DNA of 64,000 bases from IMG/VR virus record IMGVR_UViG_2706794671_000006; one strand, written 5' to 3'. Below the pieces are notes generated by a model. It was not told the origin of the DNA. It did not search any database and was given only the letters and a program-made list of their open reading frames with translations. Shown here piece by piece: positions 6,268 through 63,680 of the stretch (position 1 is the first letter of the stretch; each line of letters begins with the position of its first letter). The position numbers were made by a program, and so were the translations under genes. This DNA is from a virus. Lineage: Duplodnaviria > Heunggongvirae > Uroviricota > Caudoviricetes.

Positions 6268-6353
6268 ATATAGACACAATCCCTCCTGATTTACACAATC
6301 CCTAAAACAATTTGTTTTCTACCTTTTGTTGATTGAGATAATAAGCCACATAA

Positions 6354-6369
6354 GAAAACAACTTGTTTT
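6354..6369 (+). promoter_or_regulatory. motif A palindrome GAAAACAAcTTGTTTT upstream of first element gene (second copy at ~6304-6319)
   Basis: Near-perfect inverted repeat AAACAA-N-TTGTTT, 13 nt before the ATG at 6382. Confidence 0.45.
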
Positions 6370-6381
6370 GGAGTAGTTGAA

Positions 6382-6681
6382 ATGTTGAACATTACCCAAG
6401 CCTACCAGGTGGCATTGATCAGTTCATCTCATACATCAGAGGAAGATGCTCGCCGATTCATGATCGCAAGCAATGAGCTGGATTGGGTTTCACAAATTGA
6501 GTACGGTTGCATTGTCCACGCCGGGTTACAGGACGATGACTGGAAAGATGAGTTGCGTCGATATGGTATATCCGAGGGTGCGATTGCGAACATTCAGAAA
6601 GTACTTGATGTAGGCTTTAACTCTGTACATTTTGATTGTGGCGCACCGGTCGTTGAAGGGCTTGAGTGCTGGCAATGGTAA
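6382..6681 (+). CDS. hypothetical protein (first gene of mobile element)
   Basis: 99 aa ORF with GGAG RBS; no recognisable domain. Confidence 0.55.
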   Translation: MLNITQAYQVALISSSHTSEEDARRFMIASNELDWVSQIEYGCIVHAGLQDDDWKDELRRYGISEGAIANIQKVLDVGFNSVHFDCGAPVVEGLECWQW

Positions 6682-6717
6682 TCCGGCAATCGCTTCATAC
6701 TAGATAACGGAGAATTT

Positions 6718-6903
6718 ATGCTTAAAGAAGACTCATATCTACTAAAGGCGCTTGAAATGAGTGGCGTTGAACCTACAGTGAAAAACGCTCACGATATCTA
6801 CCTTCAGTTTTCGACAGAGCTGAAACAGCTCATAAATAAATATGGAGTGAACGACTCCAGCGTCAAAGCCATGATAGATGATGAATTAGACCATCTCATC
6901 TAA
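6718..6903 (+). CDS. hypothetical small protein
   Basis: 61 aa ORF with ACGGAG RBS. Confidence 0.5.
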   Translation: MLKEDSYLLKALEMSGVEPTVKNAHDIYLQFSTELKQLINKYGVNDSSVKAMIDDELDHLI

Positions 6904-6959
6904 TCAAACCGTTGATAATGGCGGTCACAATTTGATTCTTTTCTATAAGAACCCGTTGA

Positions 6960-7800
6960 TCGCCACTACTACCCTCCCATACCAGCAATCACATCATTAA
7001 ATATCAATAGGTTATGGTTGTTTATACCAATAAGAAAACAACTAAATAACAGATCAACGAAACATCAACGCTTTCTCCCGATTTGGTCTAAAAAATTGAC
7101 GTTATCACACATCACTTCTTATACCCGTAATTCTACGCAGCAGATAGCGCCACAGCGTCCAAATTTCACCACAGACGACTCAACACACTACCAACAAAAA
7201 CACACGCTCAAAATCGCTCCCGTTGCGTTACACAACCATATAAACAACTTATTTTCAGGCATAACAAAACAACCAAATAACACATATGCCATTACCCAAA
7301 ACAACCAACCTCTTTATGGCAGGCTACCGAAAAGACCCACCTCTTCTCCCCAGGCTACCGGACAACCAACCTAACTTTCACAGGCAATCCGAAAACATTC
7401 ATACGCGCGATACCCACGACACGCCATTACCCAAACAGCGAAGAAACACCTGAACCGCTGAAACCCTAACGAAGCCTGTAACCGCAAGGTTTCTCTCAAT
7501 CCCAAAAGACACGAAACATAACAATCACGGGAAACGCCATTACCCAATACACGAATAACTACAAAAGCCTTCACACACTCCAGACAAACAACTCAAACAC
7601 AATAACGAAAGCAATCGCCCACCTGCCATTACTCCATACACGGAGAAGAACAATCACCAAAACGACGAGAACACCCCCATAGAAGAACCACCGCAAAACT
7701 AACGAAACCACATACACCGACAGAGAAAACAACACACCCAATTCACCAACAGAAATAGTCGCCGTATAGAACATTCTGGAAGGAGTGAGCATTAACGCCT
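6960..7800. other. AC-rich (G/T-poor on plus strand) non-coding tract with iterated CGCCATTACCCAA and CAGGCTACCG motifs
   Basis: Extreme strand composition skew read directly; ORFs called here have no RBS and low-complexity translations. Confidence 0.6.
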
Positions 7801-7871
7801 ATAGAGAGGTTGAGACAGATAAAACACAACATGTATAGCGAAGAAGCCAGGTATGTATAAGTGGAGAGGGA

Positions 7872-7896
7872 AGGAGGTGTGTCGCCTCCTTTTTCG
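7872..7896 (+). terminator. terminator-like hairpin after AC-rich tract
   Basis: AGGAGG-TGTGTCG-CCTCCT followed by TTTTCG. Confidence 0.45.
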
Positions 7897-8444
7897 TATT
7901 TATTCAACATCTTACCATCACCCCCCGTAACACCCCTACGGTCAGCCTTCGGTCCATACAGAGAAAAGGTTGCATACGCTACAGAAACGGCTGGGGATTT
8001 TCAGGGAAACGGTCGAGTTGCCTGTGTGGATTTCGGGAAAAGGCTCGATGCCGGTTCTGGAACGGCGGCGTACCGGTATAGCGAGAGAGTTGCAGCTACC
8101 CACCTGTAATGTGCGGGAAGAAGAGAGGCGCTCACGTGCAGGCTGACTTGCTTACCGCTGGATTCCCTCTGAATGCCAGATACAGCGTAATTGTGCCAGA
8201 CAGCCAGCGGGTCACAATCGATTTCAGTAGGTTTTCGGGGAGAGGATTATTCTACCCACCAGCCCCGCGGCGCGCGTAGAGCAGAATATCGTAAATACTG
8301 GCTCTCGTGTCGTTCCCGGATATTCACTGCCCAGCCTGGCTTTCCCGACATAAAATCCTTTTTCGCCTTTATCTTATTGCGATAATAACACCAACAAGTA
8401 AACAGCATATTTAGACGTTATAGAAACGAAGTGAGGATGAAGAG

Positions 8445-8663: not shown

Positions 8664-8669
8664 GAGTGA

Positions 8670-8693
8670 GGCCACCAGCACGGTGGCTTTTGT
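8670..8693 (+). terminator. rho-independent terminator
   Basis: GCCACC-AGCAC-GGTGGC + TTTTGT. Confidence 0.6.
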
Positions 8694-8726
8694 CGCTATT
8701 AACCTCGGGGCAGCGCAGCACCGTAA

Positions 8727-8790
8727 CGATATACTTTGTGGCCGTTTTCTTACTGGTATTGTTTACGTAATTCAGAAAACAACATGTTTA
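8727..8790 (+). promoter_or_regulatory. ~60 bp promoter-like segment, copy 1 (TTGTGGCCG...TATTGTTTACG + degenerate motif A)
   Basis: Near-identical to 9228-9285; contains -35/-10-like hexamers. Confidence 0.4.
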
Positions 8791-8801
8791 AGGATTGCTT
8801 T

Positions 8802-9131
8802 ATGTTTGCAAATATCGACATCAACCAAATTAAGAAATTGACTCAAAAAGAGTTTGACCAGTTTTATGAGCTGGAAGGTTGGTCTTCCACTCTGATTAAT
8901 TCAAGATGGGTGCTGGAGCTGATGACTCGTGATGACGCACCTGCTTTGATGATTTGCGACATGGGTGAAGATGCTGACTTTATGGATATGAGCGAATTTT
9001 GTGTGGACACATACAACCGCAGCCAGAAGTACTACTTCACATGCGATAGCGAAAATGACGTGATTTCTAAGGTCTATCTTCACCTCGTCCAGCATTGGGA
9101 CGTTCAGGACTTCCTTGCGATATTCGCGTAA
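8802..9131 (+). CDS. hypothetical protein
   Basis: Start moved to MFANIDIN with AAGGA RBS; 109 aa. Confidence 0.55.
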   Translation: MFANIDINQIKKLTQKEFDQFYELEGWSSTLINSRWVLELMTRDDAPALMICDMGEDADFMDMSEFCVDTYNRSQKYYFTCDSENDVISKVYLHLVQHWDVQDFLAIFA

Positions 9132-9227: not shown

Positions 9228-9285
9228 CGTTTTCTTACTGGTATTATTTACGCCATTGAGAAAACAAGTTGTTTACGGAGTTGTG
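9228..9285 (+). promoter_or_regulatory. ~60 bp promoter-like segment, copy 2, ending in motif A GAAAACAAGTTGTTTAC
   Basis: Direct repeat of 8727-8790; motif A abuts the ACGGAG RBS of the next gene. Confidence 0.4.
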
Positions 9286-9597
9286 ATGAAAAAATCATTG
9301 GTTCTTGGTCTGGACAAAGACCAGAAGAGAAAAGAGAAGCCTGCACTGGTTGCTCAATTAACTTTGCTGGACATCGTTGCCAATGGAACCTCTATTCGTC
9401 TGTTCCGTGAAACAGCGGTGTCTTTCGATAAAAACACCTTTACTCGTTATGTAATGAATGTTCGTCGCCAGCGTGGAAAAGGCTGGATGGCATTTCAAAG
9501 AATGTGGCCGGAACATCAGCTCGAACTGGCTTTGATGGAAGTTAACCGCGTGGCCCAGCAAGAGATTCAGAGAGCATCAGTGATGGCAATAGCCTGA
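9286..9597 (+). CDS. hypothetical basic protein
   Basis: Start at MKKSLVLG with ACGGAG RBS; terminator follows. Confidence 0.6.
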   Translation: MKKSLVLGLDKDQKRKEKPALVAQLTLLDIVANGTSIRLFRETAVSFDKNTFTRYVMNVRRQRGKGWMAFQRMWPEHQLELALMEVNRVAQQEIQRASVMAIA

Positions 9598-10156: not shown

Positions 10157-10165
10157 ATGCCCGAT

Positions 10166-10181
10166 AACAATTTGTTTTCTG
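10166..10181 (+). promoter_or_regulatory. motif A (TAACAATTTGTTTTCT)
   Basis: Palindrome family member ~58 nt upstream of the 10238 start. Confidence 0.4.
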
Positions 10182-10237
10182 CCTTATCTGATTTGTGAAA
10201 ATGCTTTCACTGAAAGCAACTTGATAAGGAAACCATC

Positions 10238-10612
10238 ATGGGACTTGATATCTACATTGAGACGCAACCAAAAAACGATCTGAATAACGATGCATCCAGA
10301 AAGAAGGTTGCTTACTTCCGTAAGTTCAATGCTCTCTTTGGGTGGATGGAACGCAACGTAGGTGAAGTCAAAAATTGTGAGCTTTTAGAATTAACGATGA
10401 ATGACATTTGTGCTCTGAAAGCTCATTTGATGCACATGAACGAAAGTAACTGCGAAGAGTACTTACCTACCTGTGAAGGTTTTTTCTTCGGCAGTCAGGA
10501 GTACGATGAAGGGTACTGGCATGACGTGGGGGAGTTGAAAAAACTTGTGGAAGAGCTGATTAAGAACCACGACTTTCACAATAACAGACTGACCTTCTGC
10601 GCCTGGTGGTAA
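10238..10612 (+). CDS. hypothetical Cys-containing protein
   Basis: 124 aa ORF. Confidence 0.55.
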   Translation: MGLDIYIETQPKNDLNNDASRKKVAYFRKFNALFGWMERNVGEVKNCELLELTMNDICALKAHLMHMNESNCEEYLPTCEGFFFGSQEYDEGYWHDVGELKKLVEELIKNHDFHNNRLTFCAWW

Positions 10613-10927: not shown

Positions 10928-10943
10928 GAAAACAATTTGTTAT
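10928..10943 (+). promoter_or_regulatory. motif A (GAAAACAATTTGTTAT)
   Basis: 20 nt upstream of the 10963 start, just before AAGGAA RBS. Confidence 0.45.
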
Positions 10944-10962
10944 TTACGATAAGGAATTAATC

Positions 10963-11445
10963 ATGAATTTTATCGCTACTGTAAACGCACCCGCACATGG
11001 CAATATCGCTGTAACGTTCTCTGACATTGAAAAACGAGTACTTGGTGCATGGCGCGACAATGAGACGGTAGAACTGTCAGCACAAGAAAAATGCATTATT
11101 GCACGCGACATCATTGGCAATCGTCGTTACTCGCGGGTATTTGAGAAAGCGTATGTGGTAAATTCTGGATTCGGAACGTTCGTCTTTCCGGTGCGCTCCG
11201 GGCGATTCTGCCAGTCCAAGCTGATTGAGTTCGCTACGCAGATTTCTGTCTGGATTAAAACTCAATCGTCGTTCAAATTTTCCGACGATGAAGCAGTATC
11301 GCAGGGGATGCGGATCGCCAACAATGCAATTAAATGCAAAAACATTACGTATACCGCTGGCGTTGATACATGGAAACTGTTTTGCGCTAACTTTATGCTG
11401 AATGTATACGCAAGCAACCGCATCCACATCCTTGATGGCGTGTAA
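10963..11445 (+). CDS. hypothetical protein
   Basis: 160 aa ORF; last gene of the rightward early block. Confidence 0.55.
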   Translation: MNFIATVNAPAHGNIAVTFSDIEKRVLGAWRDNETVELSAQEKCIIARDIIGNRRYSRVFEKAYVVNSGFGTFVFPVRSGRFCQSKLIEFATQISVWIKTQSSFKFSDDEAVSQGMRIANNAIKCKNITYTAGVDTWKLFCANFMLNVYASNRIHILDGV

Positions 11446-13512: not shown

Positions 13513-14034
13513 TTAAAACGGAAGGATTCGTTCAACCCAATCGAAGAAAATAAGTATTTTTCTACCGTCTTCCAACTTAAGTGTGACTAGACAGGCGTCA
13601 ACGCCATCTGACGTTCCCTCAATTTCGCGACCGTCTGCCATGTAGACCCTTATAGATTTGCCGTTTTGGTAAGCCTGACGACATATCTTAAAAAAGTCAC
13701 GACGTGATGGCTGATTAACCATCTGTTCATTGTTTAGCGTTAGTCGACCTGTGAATGAAGTGTCAACCTCTTCTATGCCCGACTCAATTGTGCTAATGCG
13801 CTCAAGAGGGAGCCTTATACGATTTGTGTTGCTAAGCGGATCTGGTGTGAGGTTCAGCTTATTTCTTGCGCTCAATAGCCCGTAGACATACATGCAAAAC
13901 ACTTGGCCGTCTTCGAGAGTGACTCTTACAGGAAATTTTGCACTCCGCCAGAAGAGCAAGGTACGTTCAGCATGTTCGTAGTCTCGCGGCCATACTTCAG
14001 CCGGTATGCCGTAGGTGATGTCCAATGTTCTCAT
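13513..14034 (-). CDS. hypothetical cytoplasmic protein, translationally coupled to upstream secreted-protein gene
   Basis: 173 aa; ATGA start/stop overlap with 14031-14624. Confidence 0.55.
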   Translation of the reverse strand: MRTLDITYGIPAEVWPRDYEHAERTLLFWRSAKFPVRVTLEDGQVFCMYVYGLLSARNKLNLTPDPLSNTNRIRLPLERISTIESGIEEVDTSFTGRLTLNNEQMVNQPSRRDFFKICRQAYQNGKSIRVYMADGREIEGTSDGVDACLVTLKLEDGRKILIFFDWVERILPF

Positions 14035-14805: not shown

Positions 14806-15084
14806 TTACGGCAGTTTGCTTAGAATTTGCTCTAAATCTTCCTTTGTCATATTAGAGTTCTCATAGATGCGCATGATTTTCTCACGAGCCTTAGCAGAGA
14901 CTCCAACGGCAGATGAAACTTTGTCAAATTCAGCCATCGTCATCGTCTCCAGAATGGTATTGATAACTTCAGCCTTAGACATTTTGATGTTTTTTTCTTT
15001 TAGTTTCATTTGAAACTTTCCAAGTTTGTCATTGGCCTTATCGGACAATGCCACCTGACAATAAGTTGTTTTCTTTTCGCTCAT
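14806..15084 (-). CDS. hypothetical small protein downstream of helicase
   Basis: 92 aa ORF starting 3 nt after the helicase stop. Confidence 0.5.
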   Translation of the reverse strand: MSEKKTTYCQVALSDKANDKLGKFQMKLKEKNIKMSKAEVINTILETMTMAEFDKVSSAVGVSAKAREKIMRIYENSNMTKEDLEQILSKLP

Positions 15085-16692: not shown

Positions 16693-16710
16693 TAAGTAAG
16701 TGATTACTTA
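16693..16710 (+). promoter_or_regulatory. motif B palindrome TAAGTAA-GTGA-TTACTTA in divergent promoter region
   Basis: Perfect 7-bp arms; sits between the divergently transcribed helicase and ParB-like genes. Confidence 0.45.
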
Positions 16711-17409
16711 GTGGATTGTAGCAATAAAATGGACGTAAAAATCACGATTTTGCAGGTTGATGTTGCCAACCTTCGCCCGAATACCTGGAACACCAATTCG
16801 GTTGGTGCGCAGAATTTCGAAAAACTGAAAGGTTCTATCGAAAAATTGGGCTTTTTTAAGCCAATTTTGGCTCGTGAACTTGAAGATGGATTTTTTGAAA
16901 TCCTCGGCGGCGAACATCGCTGGCGTGCCGCTATTGAGCAAGGAATTTCAACGGTTCCAGTGCTTTCTGTGGGCAAAATTAGCGATGTCGTAGCTAAACA
17001 GATGTCACTGGTGGACAACGAGCGATACGGTGAAGACGACCAAATCGCATTGCAACGCTTCATTGAAGAAATTCAGTCAGAACTTGACTATCAACTGTCT
17101 GAAATCGCCCCGTATGACGACGAAATCTCGATGGTTTTAGCAAAAGAGGCGGCAATCGACCTTGAAGCACTGGAGGCGTTGTCTCGTGGTAGTGATGAGC
17201 CTGTCGATACCGACAAACGAGAGAAAACCGAACGTGTCGGTGCGGAACATCAGACCATGCGCTTCAAAGTAACCTTCGATGCGTCAGATCGCGTTGCAGA
17301 AACCATAAAAAACATCATCAAAGACCAGGCAATTAATACTGGCAATGAAATGGAAAACGCTGGTGAGGCTCTAGTGTGGCTGGTCGACTACTACAAGGAG
17401 CGTATGTAA
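16711..17409 (+). CDS. ParB/Srx-like nuclease-domain protein
   Basis: ParB box-like LGGEHRWRAAIEQGISTVPV; acidic C-terminal half. Start (GTG 16711 or ATG 16729) uncertain. Confidence 0.7.
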   Translation: MDCSNKMDVKITILQVDVANLRPNTWNTNSVGAQNFEKLKGSIEKLGFFKPILARELEDGFFEILGGEHRWRAAIEQGISTVPVLSVGKISDVVAKQMSLVDNERYGEDDQIALQRFIEEIQSELDYQLSEIAPYDDEISMVLAKEAAIDLEALEALSRGSDEPVDTDKREKTERVGAEHQTMRFKVTFDASDRVAETIKNIIKDQAINTGNEMENAGEALVWLVDYYKERM

Positions 17410-18077
17410 TGACCAAAAAGTTTGAAATCGTATATCGCGACCCGGCAGATCTTATTCCCTATGAGATGAATGCCAAAAAGCATGATGAACAGCAGATCAG
17501 AGATCTGGCCGCAGCCATTAAAAAGCGCGGATTTGACCAGCCAATTACGGTCGATAAGAACGACGTAATTATTACTGGCCACGGCCGCCGTGAGGCTGCA
17601 ATTTTTGCTGGACTTGAGCGTGTACCGGTTATTGTTCGCGATGATCTCAGTGATGACGAGGTTCGTGCGAAGCGCCTTGAAGATAACCGACTTGCCAGCA
17701 TTGATTACGATGCAATTAAGCTACAGAAAGAGCTTGAGTCGCTTGTTCTGGACGATATCGAGGTTTTCGGCTTTGAAGAGCGTGAGTTGAATGTTCTCGT
17801 TGGCAGTATGACAGAAGAAATGGACACCGACTCGCTAGTTATCGATCTTAGCGAAGAAACTAAACGACAGAAGGATGAACACACCGAGATCAGTCGTGAA
17901 GTTGCAGCGGAAGAAGTACGTGTTGTCGACGTATTGGGCTTTAAAACTCTCCCTGCTGGCTCTGCCATTGTTGTTGGTGATTTGCTTGCCCATATGGAAG
18001 AAATGACGGGAGAAAGCGGGGTAGACGCATTTGTGGCATATGCGGAGAAGATCTCTTCCGGGGAGATGGCTGCATGA
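17409..18077 (+). CDS. second ParB/Srx-like domain protein
   Basis: ITGHGRREAAIFAGLERVPVIV motif; TAATG overlap with upstream gene. Confidence 0.65.
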   Translation: MTKKFEIVYRDPADLIPYEMNAKKHDEQQIRDLAAAIKKRGFDQPITVDKNDVIITGHGRREAAIFAGLERVPVIVRDDLSDDEVRAKRLEDNRLASIDYDAIKLQKELESLVLDDIEVFGFEERELNVLVGSMTEEMDTDSLVIDLSEETKRQKDEHTEISREVAAEEVRVVDVLGFKTLPAGSAIVVGDLLAHMEEMTGESGVDAFVAYAEKISSGEMAA

Positions 18078-19635: not shown

Positions 19636-19902
19636 ATGACGTTAACCGATAAACAAAAGGACATCATCAAAACGCTCAATCTCGGTTATGAGCGAGGTCA
19701 TCTACTTGACCTGGACGAATTGCTTGAAGTTTTGCCGTACAAGACAACCAAGCAAAGTATCCAGTTCTCAATTCGCGCTCTGATAAAAAAGGGGCTGGTG
19801 GAGAAAGGGCATACGCGCCAACGCAGTGACAATCGCTATCACCGCCGAACTCTTGGGTTAACCACTTTAGGTCGAGCCAAAGCGAAGTTACTGGTGATGT
19901 AA
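19636..19902 (+). CDS. hypothetical small protein (possible winged-helix)
   Basis: 88 aa ORF; weak HTH-like segment. Confidence 0.4.
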   Translation: MTLTDKQKDIIKTLNLGYERGHLLDLDELLEVLPYKTTKQSIQFSIRALIKKGLVEKGHTRQRSDNRYHRRTLGLTTLGRAKAKLLVM

Positions 19903-19933: not shown

Positions 19934-19981
19934 CTGTATATATAAATAATAAGTAACTTATTAAATATATACGGAAGCAGG
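19934..19981 (+). repeat. ~47 bp direct repeat, copy 1 (TGTATATATAAATAATAAGTAACTTATTAAATATATACGGAAGCAGG)
   Basis: Near-identical copy at ~50815-50862; contains palindrome AATAAGT-A-ACTTATT and TATAAATA. Confidence 0.75.
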
Positions 19982-20016: not shown

Positions 20017-20059
20017 AGAAAACAAGTTGGTTAGCAGATGCAGTAAACAAGTTGTTTTA
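20017..20059 (+). promoter_or_regulatory. two adjacent motif A copies (GAAAACAAGTTGGTT and TAAACAAGTTGTTTT) upstream of terminase operon
   Basis: Followed by hairpin AGAGCGC-ATGGAC-GCGCTCT and the AGAGGGA RBS of the 20098 gene. Confidence 0.45.
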
Positions 20060-20097
20060 GAGCGCATGGACGCGCTCTGTGTGTTTTAGAGGGATCT

Positions 20098-20730
20098 ATG
20101 ACGGTCGAAAAAGACGAGGTAAAAACTCGCCTGACACCAGCGGAGTGGGCCGAAGCTGAAGCCAAATGGACGTCAGGCGAATATACACTCTCAAAGCTGG
20201 AGGAAGAGTACGGCATTCGTCGTGAAACACTCTCCAGACATTTCAAAAAGCGAGGATTAGAGAAAGGCGCGGACTCTGTTGGGAAGATGGTTCGTGAGTC
20301 TCTTAAATCTGACGCAGAGCTTCGCGCTAAAGCCCGTGCGGAAAAGATAGAAGAACGTCGTACACGTTATGACGGCTGGGCGTATGCGTTGGGGCAGATG
20401 GTGATGGTCGAAGTCACTACGGCCAAACGTGAGGGTAAGCCTTTAGGGGCGATTGAGGATTCTCTCAAGAGCTTACAGAGAGCCAGTAATACCCTTGCAA
20501 AATGCTTTGAAGTTTCGTCCAAAGCATTGGGCATGGATCATGCGGAAAATGACGAGGAAGAAATTCCGAACCTGGTATTTGGTGAGCTTACGCCTTCCCA
20601 GGTGGCGAAATTACGTCAGGAAGACGACGAGCCTGAAATCATCGATGACGAATTGCTTGAGACGTTGGAAGAAGAAGCTCTAAGCGAATTTGATGCGACA
20701 GATGATGGAAGTGAAGGGGAGGACAAATAA
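20098..20730 (+). CDS. terminase small subunit (putative)
   Basis: 210 aa, N-terminal HTH-like segment, acidic C-terminus, immediately upstream of large terminase. Confidence 0.5.
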   Translation: MTVEKDEVKTRLTPAEWAEAEAKWTSGEYTLSKLEEEYGIRRETLSRHFKKRGLEKGADSVGKMVRESLKSDAELRAKARAEKIEERRTRYDGWAYALGQMVMVEVTTAKREGKPLGAIEDSLKSLQRASNTLAKCFEVSSKALGMDHAENDEEEIPNLVFGELTPSQVAKLRQEDDEPEIIDDELLETLEEEALSEFDATDDGSEGEDK

Positions 20731-22012: not shown

Positions 22013-23587
22013 ATGGATTTGAACGACAAACAAATTAAGGATCTGGTGGCGCGACGCCACCCGGAATACGAAAAGAAAAAAGAACATTGGGACTTCCTCG
22101 CCAGCACTTACGCTGGCGGGCGTGGTTGGTTTACAGACAATATCTTTCGTTACTTTAAAGAGGGAGATCAGGAGTTTAAGGAGCGTGTTGAGCGTGCCTA
22201 TCGCTTCAACCACACTCGTGAGGTGGTAAACCTCATCAACAAATATCTCTTTAAAGAAGACATTCATAGAAATATCGAAGAGGCACCAGAGCAGATCCGC
22301 AATTTCTGGAAACGTGCGACTCGCCAGAATGCCTCTATTGACTCATTTATGGCCGCCATTGATTTGCAGTCGTCTATTTACGGTCGCATATGGGTTGTTG
22401 TCGATAGCACGATGAGTGGTGATGTTGAGTCAGTAGCTGACGAGAAAAAGAAAGATGCTCGCGCCTACGCCTACTGGATTTCACCTCAGCAAATGCTGGA
22501 TGTGGCATGGGACGACGACGGGAATATGTTGTGGGCGTTAATTGTGGAAGTCGCTCGTGATGACGCAGATCCTTTTACTTCTACAGGTCAGGAATACCAA
22601 CGTTATCGTCTGTGGACACAAAACGAGTGGTATCTGTTCCGTGAGGAAGTGAAGAAGGGCGCTGGTGGAGCAGGTCGCCGTCAGGCAAAAGTTATTTTAG
22701 AGGATAGCGGTGAGCATAATCTCGGCGTAGTTCCTGTGTTTCCTGTTGATTGTATTGGAGAAAGTGAATCACCGTATTTCAGCCCATCGTTGATCGATGA
22801 TATCGCTTATCTTGATCGTGCGGTTGCAAACTATCTGTCAAACCTTGATGCCATTATTCAGGATCAGACATTTAGCCAGTTGGCTATACCGGTACAGTCG
22901 CTTTTACCTGGTGATGAAAACCACACTAAAGTGCTTGAAATGGGCACAAAGCGAGTCTTCACCTACGATTCTGAAGGTGGAAACCAGCCGTTTTATCTGT
23001 CACCAGACCCGAAACAAGCTCAGATGATCATCACTACGATTAAGACGGTGATTAACGAAATCTACCATTCAGTTGGTGTAGCTGGTGAGCGAACGAAGCA
23101 GGACAACGCACAGGGAATCGATAATTCATCTGGTGCCGCAAAAATGTATGACTTCCAGCGTGTAAATAGCTTGCTTGTCACAAAAGCAGAGCGTCTGGAA
23201 AGGGCTGAACGCCAAATCATGCTACTGGTTGCGAAATGGATGGGGGTAGATCTGGACGAAGACCACTCTTTAATTGCGTATCCAGAAAGTTTCGATATTC
23301 GTGGCCTTACTGATGAATTTTCTGTTGCCGAGAAACTGTCATTACTTCAGGCACCGGACTCTGTACGTCGTCACCAGATGGAAATGCTTATTGAGAAGAT
23401 TTTCCCGAACATTACTGAGGCGATGAAAAAGGAATTTGATAAAGATCTCTTGAATTTTCCTCCAAAAAATGATCTAAATACCCTTGAAAATAAGTCAGTA
23501 CTTACTTATGATCGTGGTGCAGCCCAAGAAAGCGGGCAAGATCAACCCCGAGGGAATGGGGACTCATCTACTCAAGAGAACGAGTGA
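22013..23587 (+). CDS. portal protein (putative)
   Basis: 524 aa, directly after large terminase. Confidence 0.6.
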   Translation: MDLNDKQIKDLVARRHPEYEKKKEHWDFLASTYAGGRGWFTDNIFRYFKEGDQEFKERVERAYRFNHTREVVNLINKYLFKEDIHRNIEEAPEQIRNFWKRATRQNASIDSFMAAIDLQSSIYGRIWVVVDSTMSGDVESVADEKKKDARAYAYWISPQQMLDVAWDDDGNMLWALIVEVARDDADPFTSTGQEYQRYRLWTQNEWYLFREEVKKGAGGAGRRQAKVILEDSGEHNLGVVPVFPVDCIGESESPYFSPSLIDDIAYLDRAVANYLSNLDAIIQDQTFSQLAIPVQSLLPGDENHTKVLEMGTKRVFTYDSEGGNQPFYLSPDPKQAQMIITTIKTVINEIYHSVGVAGERTKQDNAQGIDNSSGAAKMYDFQRVNSLLVTKAERLERAERQIMLLVAKWMGVDLDEDHSLIAYPESFDIRGLTDEFSVAEKLSLLQAPDSVRRHQMEMLIEKIFPNITEAMKKEFDKDLLNFPPKNDLNTLENKSVLTYDRGAAQESGQDQPRGNGDSSTQENE

Positions 23588-28075: not shown

Positions 28076-28100
28076 AATAGGTAAGTATATACTTAAATAT
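28076..28100 (+). promoter_or_regulatory. motif B (AATAGGTAAGTATATACTTAAATAT; palindrome TAAGTAT-ATACTTA)
   Basis: Intergenic, ~45 nt before the major tail protein ATG. Confidence 0.45.
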
Positions 28101-48491: not shown

Positions 48492-48509
48492 AGAAAACAA
48501 GTTGTTTCA
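48492..48509 (+). promoter_or_regulatory. motif A (AGAAAACAAGTTGTTTCA, perfect AAACAA-G-TTGTTT) upstream of parA
   Basis: ~34 nt before parA ATG. Confidence 0.5.
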
Positions 48510-48542: not shown

Positions 48543-49211
48543 ATGACCAAGATCTTTGTGGTTGGCGGCACAAAGGGCGGGCCTGGCAAATCCACCGTTG
48601 CCCAGCAAATTGCCGTTTGCCTGAAAGTCAAAAAGAAGAAGAAGGTTTATATTACCGATATAGATATTCAGCGCACGACAACGAGCTGGTGTGAAGACCG
48701 TCGACAGAACGAAGACCTTGAGCTGATTCCTTTTGCATACGTTCAGGATGACATCATTAAGCACCTAAAATCGCTTCAGGGTAGAGCTGAGTTTGTAGTG
48801 GTAGATGCTGGTGGCTTCGACTCCGAAATTCAGCGACAAGCGATGCTGATGGCTGACGTTATCATTATCCCGCTGCGTCCTAAGCGTCGTGATTTGAAAT
48901 CTTTACGTGACATCGATCCTATTATCGACAATGTTCGCAATGTAAACGATAAAGTGAAGGTCCGCGCGGTAATGAACCAGTGCCCGGCTTTGCCATCACA
49001 AGTGTCTCGCATTCTGGCGGCTAAAGAGATTGTTGAGACGTTTGGCATCGAGTCTGCGCCAGTCAATCTATATAACCGCAACGTCTATGATGATGCGGAA
49101 GAGTCTGGTCGTTCTATCTTTGAAATGACCGGTAGCGAGCGCGACAAAAAGGCGGAAGCCGAGTTTGAAGAATTTGTAGATTATCTGTTGAGTCTGGAGG
49201 AAGAAGAATAA
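48543..49211 (+). CDS. parA: ParA-family partition ATPase
   Basis: Deviant Walker A GGTKGGPGKST, ParA/MinD-like layout, 222 aa. Confidence 0.85.
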   Translation: MTKIFVVGGTKGGPGKSTVAQQIAVCLKVKKKKKVYITDIDIQRTTTSWCEDRRQNEDLELIPFAYVQDDIIKHLKSLQGRAEFVVVDAGGFDSEIQRQAMLMADVIIIPLRPKRRDLKSLRDIDPIIDNVRNVNDKVKVRAVMNQCPALPSQVSRILAAKEIVETFGIESAPVNLYNRNVYDDAEESGRSIFEMTGSERDKKAEAEFEEFVDYLLSLEEEE

Positions 49212-49570
49212 TGTCCATGAAAATGGGTGACCTAGCAAAGCGCAAAGAGTCTGATGCACCGGCTAAGAACACAACTCCTTTGCGCCAACCAGTCAGACCA
49301 CAGGGACGCCCGACTCGTGGCAAAGAGAAAATTAAAAGCCGCACAATGTCACTGGAGGACGAATACTTCGAACTGCTGGAGATGATGAAGTTCATCCCTC
49401 GCTTCGAGAAATTCACCCGCTCTGATGTGATTCGTGCTGCTATTTTCCATCTGGCAGAGAAGTCACCGCAGGAAATCGAGGACATCGTGAAGCTTAACGA
49501 GGCGATCACTGCTGCCGATGTCACGATGCGTACCGATGAAATTAAACGCGAGTTAATGAAGAAAGGTTGA
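49211..49570 (+). CDS. small partition adaptor protein (ParG/ParB-like, putative)
   Basis: 119 aa basic N-terminus, TAATG overlap with parA. Confidence 0.45.
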   Translation: MSMKMGDLAKRKESDAPAKNTTPLRQPVRPQGRPTRGKEKIKSRTMSLEDEYFELLEMMKFIPRFEKFTRSDVIRAAIFHLAEKSPQEIEDIVKLNEAITAADVTMRTDEIKRELMKKG

Positions 49571-50814: not shown

Positions 50815-50862
50815 TTCTGTATATAAATAATAAGTAACTTATTAAATATATACGGAAGCAGG
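50815..50862 (+). repeat. ~47 bp direct repeat, copy 2
   Basis: Matches 19934-19981 except a 2-nt TA difference; followed by palindrome GTCTTTT-AAAAGAC. Confidence 0.75.
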
Positions 50863-51762: not shown

Positions 51763-53103
51763 ATGACAGAACTTTGCCATACAGGACGCGGGCTGTCCGA
51801 AGAGTTTGATGAAGATTTCCAGAACAGACTGACGGCATATTTTTGTCGTGATCACGAGTTTCTTACTCGTGCGGGAGATCTGGTTGTGCCTAGCCAATTT
51901 GCCAATGCGGCCAATGCCATATTGGTTAATATGGTTTCGGGCTATTACCGTATGTACAAGAGCGCGCCCTCTTCATCTGCAATTCTGGATATGCTTAAGC
52001 GTGCGAAACGCGATAAGACTATCCGTGAGGAACTATTCGCCGATGTTGTTGCTGCGTTTAAGCGCATTCTTGCAGAAAAATTGTCCGATACCTCGTACAT
52101 GGTTGACCAGGTATCAACCTTCGCAAAAAGTGTAGCGTTTGATGATGCTCTGATTAAGGCTGCTGAACTGAAAGAGAAAGGCGACTTTCAGGGAGCGATG
52201 GCAATCATGGCTAAGGTTCAGCAGATTGGATCGAACGAAGCGACCGGAATCTATGACTACTACACCTCCGCAAGTGAGCGATTGAAAGCGCGTGAATATG
52301 AGGCTTCAGAGGAGTATGTGCCAAACAGCATTACAACTGGACTCCCTCTGCTCGATAGGTTGCTGTACCAAAAAGGCTGGGCGAAGCGTGAAATGGTGCT
52401 CTTCATGGGGTTCGCTAAATCCGGTAAATCGACCGCAATGGGTGAGTTTTCCATAAACGCAACGCTTGCTGGCTACAATGTTCTGTATCTCTCGCTGGAG
52501 GTTCACACCACCATTTTATCCGACCGTTTTGATGCAAGATTGTCGGAGACAGAAATGTCCAAGCTGGTGGAACGGCGCGATGAGGTTCATCGTAAGTTGG
52601 CAGAGTTGGGAGCCACGAAGGGGATTGGTAGTTTGTGGGTGGTTGAGCGTCCGTCAGGAAGTATGTCACCGGCAGATCTGGACCGTATGCTTAACAGCAT
52701 GAAAGCCAACGGCATGGTGCCTGACATGGTTGTTGTCGACTACGCAGATTTGATGCGTGCCAGTTATGACCTTCGTGATGATCGCGCCAACATTCGTAGT
52801 ATCTACACCGATTTACGTGCTCTTTATGACAAGCATAACGTTGCTGGGATCACGGCATCGCAGACAAACCGTGAAGGTGGCGCGTCAGAAGTTGCCACAA
52901 TGATGCACGCTGCCGACAACATCGAAAAAGTACGTATTGCTGACCTGGTAATAACGATCAACAAAACCGAAGAAGAAGAAGCGAAAGGAGAGGCTCGTCT
53001 CTACTTTGCTGGTTCACGTAACCAGCAGGGAGGGATCAGCATTCGCGTTAAACAAAACCTCGAACAAATGCGCTTCATTGAGCGAATCTTAGACGTTACC
53101 TAA
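51763..53103 (+). CDS. DnaB-family replicative helicase
   Basis: C-terminal RecA-like domain with Walker A GFAKSGKST and Walker B VVVDYADLM; 446 aa. Confidence 0.8.
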   Translation: MTELCHTGRGLSEEFDEDFQNRLTAYFCRDHEFLTRAGDLVVPSQFANAANAILVNMVSGYYRMYKSAPSSSAILDMLKRAKRDKTIREELFADVVAAFKRILAEKLSDTSYMVDQVSTFAKSVAFDDALIKAAELKEKGDFQGAMAIMAKVQQIGSNEATGIYDYYTSASERLKAREYEASEEYVPNSITTGLPLLDRLLYQKGWAKREMVLFMGFAKSGKSTAMGEFSINATLAGYNVLYLSLEVHTTILSDRFDARLSETEMSKLVERRDEVHRKLAELGATKGIGSLWVVERPSGSMSPADLDRMLNSMKANGMVPDMVVVDYADLMRASYDLRDDRANIRSIYTDLRALYDKHNVAGITASQTNREGGASEVATMMHAADNIEKVRIADLVITINKTEEEEAKGEARLYFAGSRNQQGGISIRVKQNLEQMRFIERILDVT

Positions 53104-54380: not shown

Positions 54381-54400
54381 ATAAGTAGATGATTACTTAT
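54381..54400 (+). promoter_or_regulatory. motif B palindrome ATAAGTA-GATGAT-TACTTAT
   Basis: Perfect 7-bp arms ~40 nt before the 54442 ATG. Confidence 0.45.
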
Positions 54401-55756: not shown

Positions 55757-57075
55757 AAAAGTTGATCGCACTTAAGCATAAGCTGGACGAAATGAAAGCT
55801 ATGGGAACCAATGCAAAAAAAGAGGCATTGGCCAACATGGATGACTTCGAGCAAAGCATGGTTTCATTGATGCTCAACCCTTTCATCCGTTTTGGGGTAA
55901 AGAAATACAAAGTGGCAGAGCCGCTTAGTGAGTCCATCCCAAGTGACGAAAAAGCCATTGATGTACTGAATAAGCTGGCCTCTCGCGAGCTAACGGGGAA
56001 CGCAGCAATAGCAGCTGTTGAGTCTATCGTGGCGTCAATGTGCGCCGATGGGCAGGACGTGTTCCGTCGTTTCCTCTTAAAAGACCCGAAAGCAGGTGTT
56101 GGGATTAGCCTATGCAACAAGGTTTTTGAAAATCCCATTCCGAAATTCGAGGTGCAGCTGGCGTCACCGTATAAAGAAAAAGGCGACAAATACCCCTTCA
56201 AGCCAAATCCTAAAGCAAAATGGCCGATGATTGGCAGTCTTAAGCTCGATGGTTTGCGAGTAATTTGCGAGGTTATTGTTGACGAGGAAGAGGTTAACTT
56301 CCTTTCTCGTACTGGTAATCCAATCACGTCTCTCGATCACCTAAAGCCAGCAATGCTAGAATTAGGCAAACTTTCAGGCCACAAACACATCTTCTTCGAT
56401 GGTGAAGGAACTGCCGGTTCATTTAACCAGTCCGTATCTGCATTGCGCAAAAAGAACGTGCAGGCAATTGGCGCTATTTATCATGTTTTCGACTTCTTCC
56501 TACCGGAATGGCGAGCACAGGCTAAATCCAAAGAGTATGCAAAGACAGGTATGAAGCTGAAAGAGCGCCTGGCTATGCTGGTGGCGTTGTTTAAAAACGA
56601 TCGCAGTGAAGGCTACACACAAGACATTCACCTGCATCCGTTCTATATCATCCATAGCCACGAAGACTTCATCGAACGCTTCATGAAACGCCTGGACGAT
56701 AACGAAGAAGGGGAGATGGGCAAAGATCCGAACTCTGTTTACGAGTTTAAACGTACCCGCAGCTGGTGGAAGTTAAAAGACGAAGATTCAGAAGATGGTG
56801 AAATTATCGATTTTGAGCCGGGCGACCCGGACTCTGGTTTTGCCAACACGCTTGGAAAAATAGTTATTCGTCTTGAAAACGGCGTCATCGTTCGTGCGAG
56901 CGGCATTAAGCATAAATATCTGGACGAGATCTGGAACAACAAAGAGAAGTACCGTGGTCGTATTGTCGAGGTTCATTGTCACGAGAAAACACCTGATGGC
57001 AGCTTACGCCACCCACGACTGAAATGGCCGCGTTGCTTACGCGATACCGAAGATCGAATCGGAGATAAAGAATGA
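55753..57075 (+). CDS. ATP-dependent DNA ligase
   Basis: Adenylation motif I SLKLDGLRV (KxDG), FDGE motif; 440 aa. Confidence 0.8.
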   Translation: MKKLIALKHKLDEMKAMGTNAKKEALANMDDFEQSMVSLMLNPFIRFGVKKYKVAEPLSESIPSDEKAIDVLNKLASRELTGNAAIAAVESIVASMCADGQDVFRRFLLKDPKAGVGISLCNKVFENPIPKFEVQLASPYKEKGDKYPFKPNPKAKWPMIGSLKLDGLRVICEVIVDEEEVNFLSRTGNPITSLDHLKPAMLELGKLSGHKHIFFDGEGTAGSFNQSVSALRKKNVQAIGAIYHVFDFFLPEWRAQAKSKEYAKTGMKLKERLAMLVALFKNDRSEGYTQDIHLHPFYIIHSHEDFIERFMKRLDDNEEGEMGKDPNSVYEFKRTRSWWKLKDEDSEDGEIIDFEPGDPDSGFANTLGKIVIRLENGVIVRASGIKHKYLDEIWNNKEKYRGRIVEVHCHEKTPDGSLRHPRLKWPRCLRDTEDRIGDKE

Positions 57076-57287
57076 TCGTATTAAGTAAACGGGAGAAAGA
57101 AACGCTTCATGAAATAAGTAAGTGGCCGGAGTTCCCTCAGTACTGGAAGCCTAAAACGCGAGCTAATTTAGAGCGTTTAGGGTTGGTTGCAAACATTTCG
57201 GAAACGTGGTGCTCAGCCAACTACCAGTTAACTGATAAAGGGAAAGTATTGCTACAGCAATTAGTAGAATCAGGAGTGTTAAAATGA
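57072..57287 (+). CDS. hypothetical small protein
   Basis: 71 aa, ATGA overlap with ligase stop. Confidence 0.45.
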   Translation: MIVLSKREKETLHEISKWPEFPQYWKPKTRANLERLGLVANISETWCSANYQLTDKGKVLLQQLVESGVLK

Positions 57288-57732: not shown

Positions 57733-57754
57733 GATAAGTATTTACTTACTTATC
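57733..57754 (+). promoter_or_regulatory. motif B palindrome GATAAGTA-TTTACT-TACTTATC
   Basis: Perfect 8-bp arms directly after the last CDS before the tRNA region. Confidence 0.45.
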
Positions 57755-58482: not shown

Positions 58483-58557
58483 GATGGTGTAGCTCAGCGG
58501 TAGAGCAGTTGGCTGTTAACCAATTGGTCGGTGGTTCGAATCCACCCACCATCGCCA
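58483..58557 (+). tRNA. tRNA-Asn (anticodon GTT)
   Basis: Manual fold: acceptor GATGGTG/CACCATC, anticodon loop CTGTTAA, T-arm GGTGG-TTCGAAT-CCACC, 3' GCCA. Confidence 0.8.
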
Positions 58558-58562
58558 ATTTA

Positions 58563-58649
58563 GGGGAGTTAGTCCGTAGAGGTAGCGGGGTAGACTGTAA
58601 ATCTACTGTCATTGCGACTCGGGTGGTTCGACTCTATCACTCCCCACCA
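58563..58649 (+). tRNA. tRNA-Tyr (anticodon GTA), type II with long variable arm
   Basis: Acceptor GGGGAGT/ACTCCCC, anticodon stem GTAGA/TCTAC with loop CTGTAAA, T-loop TTCGACT, 3' ACCA. Confidence 0.75.
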
Positions 58650-58653
58650 AATT

Positions 58654-58729
58654 GCCGATTTAGCTCAGTTGGTAGAGCAGTCGCTTTGTAAGCGAATGGT
58701 CATCGGTTCGATCCCGTTAATCGGCACCA
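58654..58729 (+). tRNA. tRNA-Thr (anticodon TGT)
   Basis: Acceptor GCCGATT/AATCGGC, D-arm GCTCAGTTGGTAGAGC, anticodon loop TTTGTAA, T-loop TTCGATC, 3' ACCA. Confidence 0.75.
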
Positions 58730-61445: not shown

Positions 61446-61522
61446 CACAAAGTAACAGCCAGGCATGAAATTGCCTGGCTTCATATCGAATCAAATATTT
61501 AAAACTAGCTCTACAGAAAAAA

Positions 61523-61553
61523 ATGATTCCATACTCTTTAGGTATGGAATCAT
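61523..61553 (+). other. 12-bp perfect inverted repeat ATGATTCCATAC / GTATGGAATCAT upstream of recombinase gene
   Basis: Read directly; followed by TTTCC. Confidence 0.5.
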
Positions 61554-61652
61554 TTTCCGCATGAAAGATTTTAGCTTGATTCCAAAAGAATCAATGCCTA
61601 ATATACTGGTTACTTATACAGGTGATCAGCGTAACTAGGTGAATGCCAATAA

Positions 61653-62756
61653 ATGAAAAATAGCTTTGACAGAGCACGCGCAGCAGAAAACACCTCAAAA
61701 GAGGCAATTGAGTATCTCGAAAGAGCATCTCAAATGCAGGCCATTATGATCTCACAGATCAACAATAACATGATATTCTCGGACGCATTCATGTTATTCA
61801 CTCGCTTATCTCTGCTGATAACCAGACGTCGGCCAGAGATCGCTGTTCATTGTATTTTGATACATGTTTTGCCGCACATTGCTGATGTAAAAGTAAGTGA
61901 CATTAATAGGTTCATGGTTAACCAACTGGTCAACCCTCTAATATTGGATGGCAAAATTGTTATGGGCCGCCGCGTTTTCTCTCTGATGAAGCAGTTCCTT
62001 AGCTGGTGCGCCTTCCAGGGGATGATAGACGTGTCACCGTTAAACGATATGTCACTAAACAAAGTTGCCGGTGGCGCAAAGCCCACACCTCGCGAGCGGA
62101 AGCTGACCGACGCAGAGGTATGGGTGTTCTGGAATATATGGGACTACTTCAATGTGTGCGCTGGTACAAAATGGGCGGCCAGGCTATGTCTTGTATCAGC
62201 AAGACGACCTGACGAAGTACTGAGGGCTAAAAAAAGTGAGTTCAATCTTAAGCGTGGAGTTTGGAATCAAGGCAAGAGAAACAAGTCAGCACGTGAGCAT
62301 TCGCTACCTTTAAGCACATTAATGCGCACATGCATTGAAGAGTTGTTCGAATACGGTAAAGACAGCCAGTGGCTCGTGCCTTCGAATAAAAAAATCGGGA
62401 AAGACCTTCCTATGTCTAAAGTGGCAATAGCCCAGGCATTACGTCGTATTCTGGAACGACCAGAACTGATGGAGCTTGCGCCATTTACACCCCGAGATTT
62501 GCGCCGTACTGCGCGTAGTTACTTCCCAGCATTAGGCATAAGCCAGGAGGTATCACGCAAAATAATGAACCACAGTCTTGAGGGGATAGATCGGGTCTAC
62601 GACCGGCACGATTATATGGACGAGATGCGAGACGCCTTAGAAAGTTTCTCAACGTACATCGCATCAATCGTAGAGCAACCGGATTTAGACGAAATTGACC
62701 ACAAATTCAAGGGAGATCGTCTATCAACAGAGCTTATTCGTCTAAATTTTTCATAG
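61653..62756 (+). CDS. int: tyrosine recombinase / integrase
   Basis: C-terminal catalytic signature PRDLRRTARSYF...MNHSLEGIDRVYDRHDY; start uncertain. Confidence 0.75.
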   Translation: MKNSFDRARAAENTSKEAIEYLERASQMQAIMISQINNNMIFSDAFMLFTRLSLLITRRRPEIAVHCILIHVLPHIADVKVSDINRFMVNQLVNPLILDGKIVMGRRVFSLMKQFLSWCAFQGMIDVSPLNDMSLNKVAGGAKPTPRERKLTDAEVWVFWNIWDYFNVCAGTKWAARLCLVSARRPDEVLRAKKSEFNLKRGVWNQGKRNKSAREHSLPLSTLMRTCIEELFEYGKDSQWLVPSNKKIGKDLPMSKVAIAQALRRILERPELMELAPFTPRDLRRTARSYFPALGISQEVSRKIMNHSLEGIDRVYDRHDYMDEMRDALESFSTYIASIVEQPDLDEIDHKFKGDRLSTELIRLNFS

Positions 62757-63137
62757 AGACTTTATGGCCTCAACAACCTTTTGTGATGCGCCTTTCTCTT
62801 TACCGAATCGCTCGTTATATGCAGCAAGAACCTGTTTTTCGTCCTCGTTAAGAGGAGCGGTACCTTCTTTGTATAAAAATGCTGCGAGTTCAGGTTGGCG
62901 TTCTTCCAGCACCATCATCATAAGACGACTTGGCTCAATACCCAGCGCCAACGCCAGCGGACGAACCTTATCGATAGGCAAAGGAATTTTACCACTTTTA
63001 ATTAAAGAAAGGTTGTTGGCATTTTTATAACCAATAAGTCTGGCTATTTGGGCCTGACTCATAGGTGAGGATTCAATCAGCCCTGCGATAAAAGCAGCAT
63101 AGCGACTTTCTATAAATTCAATGTTTTTGTCAGACAT
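62751..63137 (-). CDS. XRE-family helix-turn-helix regulator (repressor candidate)
   Basis: HTH-like segment SQAQIARLIGYKNANNLSLIKSG; convergent with int, divergent from downstream AT-rich region. Confidence 0.6.
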   Translation of the reverse strand: MSDKNIEFIESRYAAFIAGLIESSPMSQAQIARLIGYKNANNLSLIKSGKIPLPIDKVRPLALALGIEPSRLMMMVLEERQPELAAFLYKEGTAPLNEDEKQVLAAYNERFGKEKGASQKVVEAIKSL

Positions 63138-63384
63138 TATTGCGACCTTTGCGCGTTAAACTCTCTGGTAAGTGCTTACCGATATTACATCAAAGGTTAG
63201 GGTTGTAAAGATATAATCATTTTTTCTACAGGCACAAATATTAACCAATCAGCATTCATTAATGGAGAAAAACGACTAATAACATGTAACAAAACTAACT
63301 CAGATATGATATAGATAAGTTCAATTATGATATAAGATTTAATAGTACTCCCTACCATATTTTAAGTTAGAATGGATTGATTGA

Positions 63385-63597
63385 ATGAAAACAACTATTT
63401 CCAGCCTAATCACTCTTGAGATCGGACACGTTGAAAAATTAGCTGATGAATGTGTAGCTGACATTCTCACCGAATTACCAAATGAGCAGATTCAGGTTGG
63501 TATGCATGACGCAACAGCCTTTATATTCCTACTTAATAACAAACGCTTCACGCTTATCAATACCGGCTCTGGCTCTTTAGCCGTCAGAACCTGTTAA
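63385..63597 (+). CDS. hypothetical small protein
   Basis: 70 aa ORF after AT-rich divergent region. Confidence 0.4.
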   Translation: MKTTISSLITLEIGHVEKLADECVADILTELPNEQIQVGMHDATAFIFLLNNKRFTLINTGSGSLAVRTC

Positions 63598-63664
63598 CCC
63601 CTCTGCTACCTGCGCGAATGGCTTAGTTCCCTGTTCGCGCAGTGCTACATTAAACACACTAGTA

Positions 63665-63680
63665 AATAATTTGTTTTCAT
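63665..63680 (+). promoter_or_regulatory. motif A (AATAATTTGTTTTCAT)
   Basis: 16 nt before the 63696 ATG, followed by AAAGGA RBS. Confidence 0.4.

Follow-up and report, generated by a model that had tools for sequence, protein, structure and literature searches.

A dispersed dyad at predicted promoters of an SSU5-type phage-plasmid as a probable operator, with the small partner of ParA as its candidate binder

Introduction

Omega of pSM19035 (inc18) and ParG of TP228 are small adaptors of type Ib ParA partition systems that also act as transcription repressors, and in the case of omega the same short repeats, found at several promoters, are both the operators of a multi-operon regulon and centromeres. 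In the KorB/KorA system of the IncP plasmid RK2, a partition-related protein binds a palindrome at many promoters and coordinates the backbone genes, and in the phage-plasmid P1 one repressor, C1, governs many scattered operons through a 17-bp operator, including that of the DnaB-like helicase gene ban. Here, we analysed a 64,000-nt stretch of tailed-phage DNA (IMG/VR record IMGVR_UViG_2706794671_000006; hereafter, the window), which belongs to an SSU5-type phage-plasmid and carries a recurrent palindrome, motif A, upstream of its early, terminase, parA and helicase genes. Motif A is probably the DNA operator of a regulator encoded by the element itself.

As with omega and ParG, the gene of a small Walker-type ParA precedes that of a small protein, here termed p119, whose N-terminal tail is basic and flexible, and a putative binding site at the promoter of the par operon would permit autoregulation. 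Unlike the arrays of 7-bp heptads or 4-bp boxes of those systems, there are ~20 dispersed single dyads of 17 bp, which are found at phage early, replication and late promoters of a 108-kb siphovirus phage-plasmid, and both the fold and the DNA binding of p119 are putative. As with KorB, a palindrome is repeated at many promoters across the replicon and a partition-related binder is proposed, but KorB, a helix-turn-helix/CTPase protein of the ParB family, recognizes a 13-bp site, and the present element's two ParB_N proteins follow a second palindrome, motif B, and not motif A. P1 is likewise a phage-plasmid with dispersed 17-bp sites, one of them at a DnaB-type helicase gene, although its operator is asymmetric (ATTGCTCTAATAAATTT) and C1 has 283 residues, whereas motif A is a symmetric dyad. 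Finally, the operators of lambda CI/Cro (XRE) share with motif A the 17-bp dyad, the odd centre and the overlap with promoters, but they cluster beside the repressor gene, a place that is taken here by motif B, with motif A being dispersed. By analogy, the logic would resemble that of omega/ParG, KorB and P1 C1, while sequence, copy number and the siphovirus phage-plasmid setting differ from all of them.

Phage-plasmids of the SSU5 type are frequent in Escherichia, Klebsiella, Salmonella (pHCM2) and Yersinia pestis (pMT1), some of them carry resistance genes, and ~1000 PLSDB records contain the terminase. Positions 6000–64000 of the window align nearly end to end with such elements, the closest being 'Escherichia phage CMS-2020a' (CP054387.1; 98% identical), followed by Cyrano (OV696614; 95–97%) and by Salmonella phage SSU5 and Klebsiella relatives (~80%). 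The segment at ~2590–6300, with MinD/Mrp-like and MetRS-like genes common to Cyrano and CP054387.1, is phage-plasmid DNA too; positions 1–90 are the end of an IS1 at the left window edge, and the next ~2.5 kb have no match to related phages. An earlier note on this DNA had framed it as chromosome plus prophage and had described the motif as absent from the chromosomal part; the premise fails, because ~2590–6300 belongs to the element and 1–90 is an IS1 end, so that no chromosomal part can be demonstrated. Judged by these alignments, the window is part of an SSU5/pHCM2-type phage-plasmid in all its identifiable parts. In the literature searched, we found neither a description of motif A nor an account of the quiescence of SSU5-type phage-plasmids in the plasmid state. 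An operator with ~20 mapped sites, together with a short list of candidate binders, makes the latter question directly testable.

Results and discussion

Sequence and statistics of motif A

Motif A has the consensus GAAAACAA-N-TTGTTT and is a palindrome of 15–17 bp, with a full dyad, GAAAACAANTTGTTTTC, that is completed by either half. The form AAACAA-N-TTGTTT yielded six exact matches in the window versus 0.15 expected, and none of 100 shuffles reached six, so that the motif is real and non-random; the shorter AACAA-N-TTGTT was found at eight sites versus ~0.1 expected. When palindromes were enumerated blindly, motif A ranked first in the window, Cyrano, SSU5 and Klebsiella pJN2-26, with 9–11 exact copies versus 0.01 expected. 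Allowing for one or two mismatches, ~18 sites were found in Cyrano, 21 in SSU5 and 17 in pJN2-26, and nearly every one of them is intergenic according to the annotation of these three elements. The motif was recovered at every position listed previously except for ~7028, which is a half-site only. Other details required revision: the pattern as formerly read, with two central Ns, is not significant (three matches versus 1.47 expected) and the spacer is one base, and the description of the motif as always being on the plus strand is meaningless for a palindromic core, the right half being the better one at 6303, 10163 and 63662.

Promoter context

The anatomy of the sites was derived from 59 distinct copies aligned on the motif. 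The 6+6 core hardly varies, around a central base that is free; G/A extends the left arm, and the right arm usually runs into AAGG, the Shine–Dalgarno sequence. Upstream, a T is found at -12 in 56 of the 59 sites, within the context 'gaTAAT', and the -10 hexamer most often ends at -12 as well, i.e. ~12 nt upstream of the motif, while the -35 region is weak and T-rich. The best sigma-70 match at the sites was 7.08 of 12, compared with 6.05 of 12 at random positions (p = 4e-14). From these features, motif A would sit just downstream of predicted sigma-70-like promoters with a conserved -10 and a weak -35 element and, given a start ~7 nt after the -10 element, the predicted transcript would contain it at about +5 to +20.

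At several promoters, the motif is joined by an inverted copy located exactly 51 bp upstream (centre to centre), over the -35 region; such pairs are found at 6311/6362 in the window, at 88325/88376 and 93668/93719 in SSU5, at 28545/28596 in Klebsiella, and also in Cyrano. Other promoters retain an intact upstream copy only, their downstream copy having decayed (10163 and 10212 in the window). A degenerate half-site may be either the left or the right one, and since either half can be degenerate, the pattern fits recognition of a DNA dyad. Overall, the motif anatomy fits duplex DNA read by a symmetric oligomer, possibly with looping, and not an RNA signal, and the earlier view of a dyad-symmetric cis-element at gene starts is supported.

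Action at the RNA level, either as a hairpin in the 5'-untranslated region (5'-UTR) or as a single-stranded site beside the Shine–Dalgarno sequence for a translational repressor such as the FljA-like product of 13513–14034, was considered and found highly improbable. The motif does lie in the predicted 5'-UTR, often abutting the Shine–Dalgarno sequence, the window encodes a full-length Pfam Flag1_repress (FljA) protein (E = 1e-68), and FljA-like genes are confined to lineages having motif A; FljA proteins repress the translation of fliC mRNA (PMC2652032). However, a hairpin formed by the 17-mer would be unstable, with a mean minimum free energy of -0.57 kcal/mol, and its covariation is not above that of shuffles. 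The two outermost positions of the stem fail to pair in 41 and 49 of 57 sites, respectively, only 69% of the cells are paired, a single pair is changed on both sides, and there is no Rfam match. Such instability and lack of covariation rule out an RNA hairpin as the function of motif A. Moreover, the inverted copies at -40, upstream of the promoters, would fall outside the transcript. As to FljA, the fliC 5'-UTRs of E. coli K-12 and Salmonella were scored with the motif A position weight matrix and showed no motif-A-like site: the best scores were -8.7 and -5.0, respectively, versus at least 20 for true sites, and 26% and 11% of background windows scored as high. The FljA-like protein, a member of a family of mRNA-binding repressors, is also hypervariable, with 66–100% identity among E. 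coli elements that are otherwise 95–98% identical and share an invariant motif, and it was discarded as the binder on these grounds. Of the two functions put forward in the earlier note, the conserved 5'-UTR stem-loop is thus rejected, and an operator for an oligomeric DNA-binding regulator is the best reading, albeit without the regulator proposed there (see below).

We likewise give very little credence to motif A having no dedicated binder and being part of a promoter cassette copied with early genes, for instance as an initial-transcribed or translation-enhancing sequence. While ~45 bp of upstream promoter sequence are also alike among many cassettes (e.g. GCGATAATAACACCAACAA), the two halves of the motif are symmetrically conserved around a free central base, inverted copies occur at -40, and the motif outlasts diverged upstream promoter sequence, as at the helicase and parA genes of lineages with 66–80% DnaB identity.

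Conservation and distribution

At orthologous sites in SSU5 and Klebsiella, motif A is 86.7% identical versus 77.1% for the 60-nt flanks (p = 0.002), and at the helicase promoter it is kept over diverged upstream sequence. Elements from Escherichia, Salmonella, Klebsiella, Yersinia and Kluyvera carry the motif. Relatives whose terminases are more distant lack it, namely those in Providencia (complete plasmid), Acinetobacter and Aeromonas, and so do the 21-kb loci scanned in Morganella and Xenorhabdus. A palindrome encountered in Aeromonas, ATAACA-N3-TGTTAT, was rejected, as it is located inside insertion-sequence copies. Scanning IMG/VR with the 15-mer mostly returned single chance matches, and the loci with multiple sites were all SSU5-family contigs, save for one two-site locus resembling chance.

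The distribution among genera is also what a host transcription factor would produce if it were conserved in Enterobacteriaceae and Yersiniaceae and not in Morganellaceae, Acinetobacter and Aeromonas, given that the motif is invariant in the elements of the former and absent from the relatives in the latter. We regard such a factor as very unlikely: the restriction of multi-site loci to the SSU5 family speaks against it, and we know of no E. coli factor with the motif A consensus. The boxes nearest to it are of the KdgR/IclR type, which differ in spacing.

The Morganellaceae relatives have a different repeat, TATGGGAGCACGGC, found in Providencia plasmid CP096299 (L037–L039; five copies) and at ~9300 of Morganella locus L021. 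The terS leader, which holds motif A and a hairpin in E. coli-type elements, contains one of the copies. In Acinetobacter plasmid NZ_CP016299 (L010), a sigma factor of the sigma-70 family is annotated at 30780–31445, between cobS-like and DNA polymerase III alpha genes, and enterobacterial elements have a short gap at the position of this gene.

Expression in the lysogen and the XRE-family repressor

Expression values were taken from the RNA-sequencing table of a Cyrano lysogen (PMC9928086, supplement 2). For genes immediately preceded by motif A (terS, cobT, CYRAN_58, nrdB, a tciA-like gene and CYRAN_87, 101, 105, 106, 108 and 110), the values were 5–13 versus a background median of 9.8, the exceptions being the helicase gene (21) and CYRAN_111 (25), and the parA operon reads 50–89. 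Because the genes behind motif A are at background in the lysogen, their promoters are off in the plasmid state, while the par operon is partly on.

The regulator proposed in the earlier note was the XRE-family protein encoded at 62751–63137, which as a lysogeny repressor would bind motif A and silence all early promoters in the manner of CI or P1 C1. In agreement with this, its gene adjoins that of the integrase, and hardly any SSU5-type plasmid is without it (961 records). In the Cyrano lysogen, where motif-A genes are silent, XRE is expressed (96 versus background 9.8), and a 17-bp dyad suits a helix-turn-helix dimer. SSU5 (NC_018843) lacks, at position ~42.6 kb, the module of integrase, XRE and p70 (61653–63597 of the window) that is present in nearly all related plasmids, and it was isolated as a lytic phage, with which this loss is consistent; it could therefore be a repressor-deletion mutant that has kept its operators. 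We nevertheless consider XRE unlikely to be the motif-A regulator. Its conserved minus-strand promoter (TTTACA-16-TAATAT) has GGTAAGCACTTACC (63167–63180) behind it, at ~+2, with the same arrangement in Klebsiella, which places GGTAAG-NN-CTTACC, a form of motif B, at the position of its own operator. The region at 63138–63384 contains GGTAAGTGCTTACC, i.e. motif B, and no motif A, as does its counterpart in pJN2-26, and the nearest motif A is ~500 bp away. Furthermore, orthologues with 38–39% identity exist in Acinetobacter and Providencia relatives without motif A, and the recognition helix differs (ANNLSLIKSG versus PNILSLIKKG) between E. coli and Klebsiella elements whose motif A is identical.

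Motif B is a second palindrome family, TAAGTA-N2..6-TACTTA or GGTAAG-NN-CTTACC, with variants GGTAAGTACTTACC in Klebsiella and AGTAAGCGCTTACT in Acinetobacter (11 copies), further copies in Aeromonas, and the form TAAGTCA-N4-TGACTTA in Halomonas, Methylocystis and other distant relatives. It persists across the wider family, where it co-occurs with the winged-helix protein p88 and the two ParB_N proteins. It could be a middle/late promoter signal or the XRE operator, and XRE may control these separate, more ancient sites.

p119 as the candidate binder

The gene of p119 overlaps the parA stop codon at 49211. The ParA itself is small, of deviant-Walker type and devoid of an N-terminal DNA-binding domain, and the gene directly after it encodes a small adaptor-sized protein. 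A perfect motif A precedes the parA ATG by 34 nt, and lineages whose p119 is 36–64% identical retain it. In the Cyrano lysogen, the p119 orthologue, CYRAN_29, reads 89; its label 'RelE/ParE putative toxin' is unsupported, with no Pfam match up to E = 10. Across Cyrano, SSU5 and Klebsiella, p119 is 91–99% and ParA 83–99% identical. The p119 family has few members (25 homologues; 18 clusters among 1.8 billion representatives), and an alignment of 12 homologues, down to 49% identity, revealed invariant MGDLAK, I.SRTMS.EDE and FTRSDVIRAAI segments and a basic tail, PQGRPTRGK. The position and sequence pattern of p119 suggest a partition adaptor, putatively a ParG/omega-like centromere-binding protein.

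Four of the aligned p119 lineages were examined (48–64% identity), and motif A is kept at both the parA and helicase promoters. Four lineages are about equally distant from the window (DnaB 66–69% identical): those designated L191–L193 (SRTMS) and L197 (SRTIS) keep motif A, and in L195, the one whose strand is altered (SRSLS), the sites at both promoters are changed. Two others, L196 (SRTFS) and the Providencia lineage (SRTVS), are without the canonical dyad; upstream of parA, Providencia has TTGTTTA-N2-TAAACAA and GTAAACA. No p119 homologue was detectable in the Acinetobacter and Aeromonas relatives, both of which lack motif A; in the Acinetobacter relative, ParA is paired with a different protein, and repeats of another kind, ATCTATATAGAT, precede parA. 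That p119 is the regulator binding motif A is, on the evidence above, a serious possibility that we place a little below an even chance.

A number of results weigh against this assignment and the promoter model on which it builds. No site reaches nine of 12 sigma-70 consensus matches, and a generic promoter scanner calls none of the motif-A promoters. There is a single site at parA and no classical repeat array. The SRTVS strand of Providencia is nearly identical to that of the motif-A lineages, yet this plasmid has no dispersed motif A, only TTGTTTA-N2-TAAACAA near parA. The covariation of strand and site rests on one lineage, L195, and the events are few and partly confounded with phylogeny; in addition, all motif-A lineages may form one clade, in which case the co-occurrence of p119 and motif A amounts to few independent events. 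The assignment of SRTMS and FTRSDVIRAAI to the strand and second helix of a putative ribbon-helix-helix fold is our own reading of the sequence. Searches with p119 returned no Pfam match (even at E = 10) and no PDB sequence match, and hhalign gave a probability of 0.1 against ParG. The AlphaFold2 monomer is of low confidence (pLDDT 64), with residues 1–47 unstructured and helices at 48–60 and 70–84, and had no Foldseek matches.

Proposed mechanism

We infer that an oligomeric protein encoded by the plasmid binds motif A and would block the binding or escape of RNA polymerase, whereby the early, replication and late-operon promoters would be kept quiet in the plasmid-prophage state. The full proposal, with motif A as the DNA operator and p119 as the most likely binder silencing these promoters, has in our estimation about an equal chance of being right or wrong. 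Under it, p119 oligomers would bind the dyad at ~+12 of the predicted transcripts, and sometimes also at -40, and so block ~20 promoters, that of the par operon among them, which would provide negative feedback. In a newly infected cell devoid of p119, the early promoters would fire and then be shut as p119 accumulates. The dispersed motif-A sites could double as centromere sites for ParA-driven segregation, like the omega sites of pSM19035, and p119 would then combine the part of a ParG/omega-type partition adaptor with that of a global repressor.

In its most general form, which we advance tentatively and with more doubt than confidence, the small partner of ParA would be the global silencer of the phage programme in enterobacterial SSU5/pHCM2/pMT1-type elements, with its dyad copied to ~20 early, replication and late promoters. 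If so, one protein would both segregate the plasmid-prophage and quiet the virus, the early burst upon infection of a naive cell would be self-limiting, and segregation, copy number and the lysis–lysogeny state would be coupled through that protein. The omega/KorB principle would thereby be extended from plasmids to a tailed phage.

Other candidate proteins

Further proteins of the element were evaluated and rejected as motif-A binders. A second ribbon-helix-helix-looking protein, p92 (14806–15084), is expressed in the lysogen, and its putative DNA-facing strand varies among lineages that share the motif. The winged-helix-like p88 (19636–19902) is at background in the lysogen and reaches distant relatives that have motif B, not A, and p71 (57072–57287), also winged-helix-like, is at background. 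The two ParB_N proteins (16711–18077) track motif B across lineages.

Features of the window

The motif copies and the principal genes are collected in Table 1, which includes two decayed copies, at 8398 and 10212, in addition to those listed previously.

Table 1. Copies of motifs A and B and associated genes in the window
Feature	Coordinates	Strand	Context
Motif A copy (GAAAACAAATTGTTTTA on the minus strand)	6303–6319	-	Upstream partner of the 6354 copy, over its -35 region
Motif A copy, GAAAACAACTTGTTTTG	6354–6370	+	Abuts the Shine–Dalgarno sequence of a 99-aa early gene (6382–6681); GATAAT, -10-like, upstream
Isolated half-site, GAAAACAA	7034–7041	+	At the start of an A/C-rich stretch of ~850 nt poor in open reading frames
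Decayed motif A copy, GTAAACAGCATATTTAG	8398–8414	+	Behind a typical promoter cassette, GCGATAATAACACCAACAA
Motif A copy, GAAAACAACATGTTTAA, one mismatch	8775–8791	+	Upstream of early gene 8802–9131
Motif A copy, GAAAACAAGTTGTTTAC	9260–9276	+	Upstream of early gene 9286–9597
Motif A copy, GATAACAATTTGTTTTC, right half better	10163–10179	-	Directly after a terminator
Decayed partner of the 10163 copy	10212–10228		Before gene 10238–10612
Motif A copy, GAAAACAATTTGTTATT	10928–10944	+	Behind TTGACG-N16/17-ATAATT; upstream of gene 10963–11445
Motif A copy 1, GAAAACAAGTTGGTTAG	20018–20034	+	Late (terminase) operon promoter
Motif A copy 2, GTAAACAAGTTGTTTTA	20043–20059	+	Late-operon leader; followed by a hairpin, then the terS ATG at 20098
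Perfect motif A, GAAAACAAGTTGTTTCA	48493–48509	+	Upstream of parA; identical in SSU5 and Klebsiella pJN2-26
Small Walker-type ParA ATPase, 222 aa	48543–49211	+	MipZ, AAA_31, CbiA and ParA family matches; type Ib-like
p119, 119 aa, candidate motif-A binder	49211–49570	+	Basic disordered N-terminal tail; SRTMS and FTRSDVIRAAI invariant
Motif A copy, GAAAACAATTTGTTTAA	51729–51745	+	Upstream of DnaB-type helicase gene 51763–53103
XRE-family repressor	62751–63137	-	Promoter region with motif B (63167–63180), not motif A; candidate of the earlier note
Motif A copy, GTAAATAATTTGTTTTC, left half degenerate	63662–63678	+	Upstream of CobT-like gene starting at ~63697
Motif B copies	16693–16710, 23491–23508, 28082–28095, 54382–54399, 57735–57752, 63167–63180		Inside the late operon, before ParB1, at the XRE promoter

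Between the second late-operon copy of motif A and the terS ATG, a terminator-like hairpin spans 20058–20079, with a U-tract up to 20087. It is kept in SSU5, Klebsiella and Yersinia and shows compensatory stem changes in locus L024, which suggests attenuation or antitermination control of the late genes.

The stretch at 7030–7895 (plus strand) is poor in open reading frames over ~850 nt, strongly A/C-rich and G-poor, and contains direct repeats of 30 and 89 nt. It begins after the promoter-like site with the motif-A half-site and ends at a strong terminator (7868–7894); it has no Rfam match and is annotated in Cyrano as a hypothetical coding sequence, CYRAN_103. This stretch may be a long non-coding RNA.

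Two copies of an extended AT-rich palindrome, ctgtatatataaataaTAAGTAACTTAttaaatatatacgg, are present, upstream of the terminase promoter (19934–19975) and between the par and helicase regions (50815–50856), and the palindrome is also found in SSU5 and Klebsiella. It could be a cos/pac, an origin or a recombination site.

The FljA-family gene at 13513–14034 (minus strand) encodes a full-length homologue of the repressor of phase-1 flagellin. Its variability among E. coli elements suggests diversifying selection or cassette exchange, and its function is probably directed at the host. The Rfam scan of the window returned three tRNAs, clustered at 58483–58726, and nothing else, and a masked run of 21 Ns lies at 4393–4413, within the region of the MetRS-like gene.

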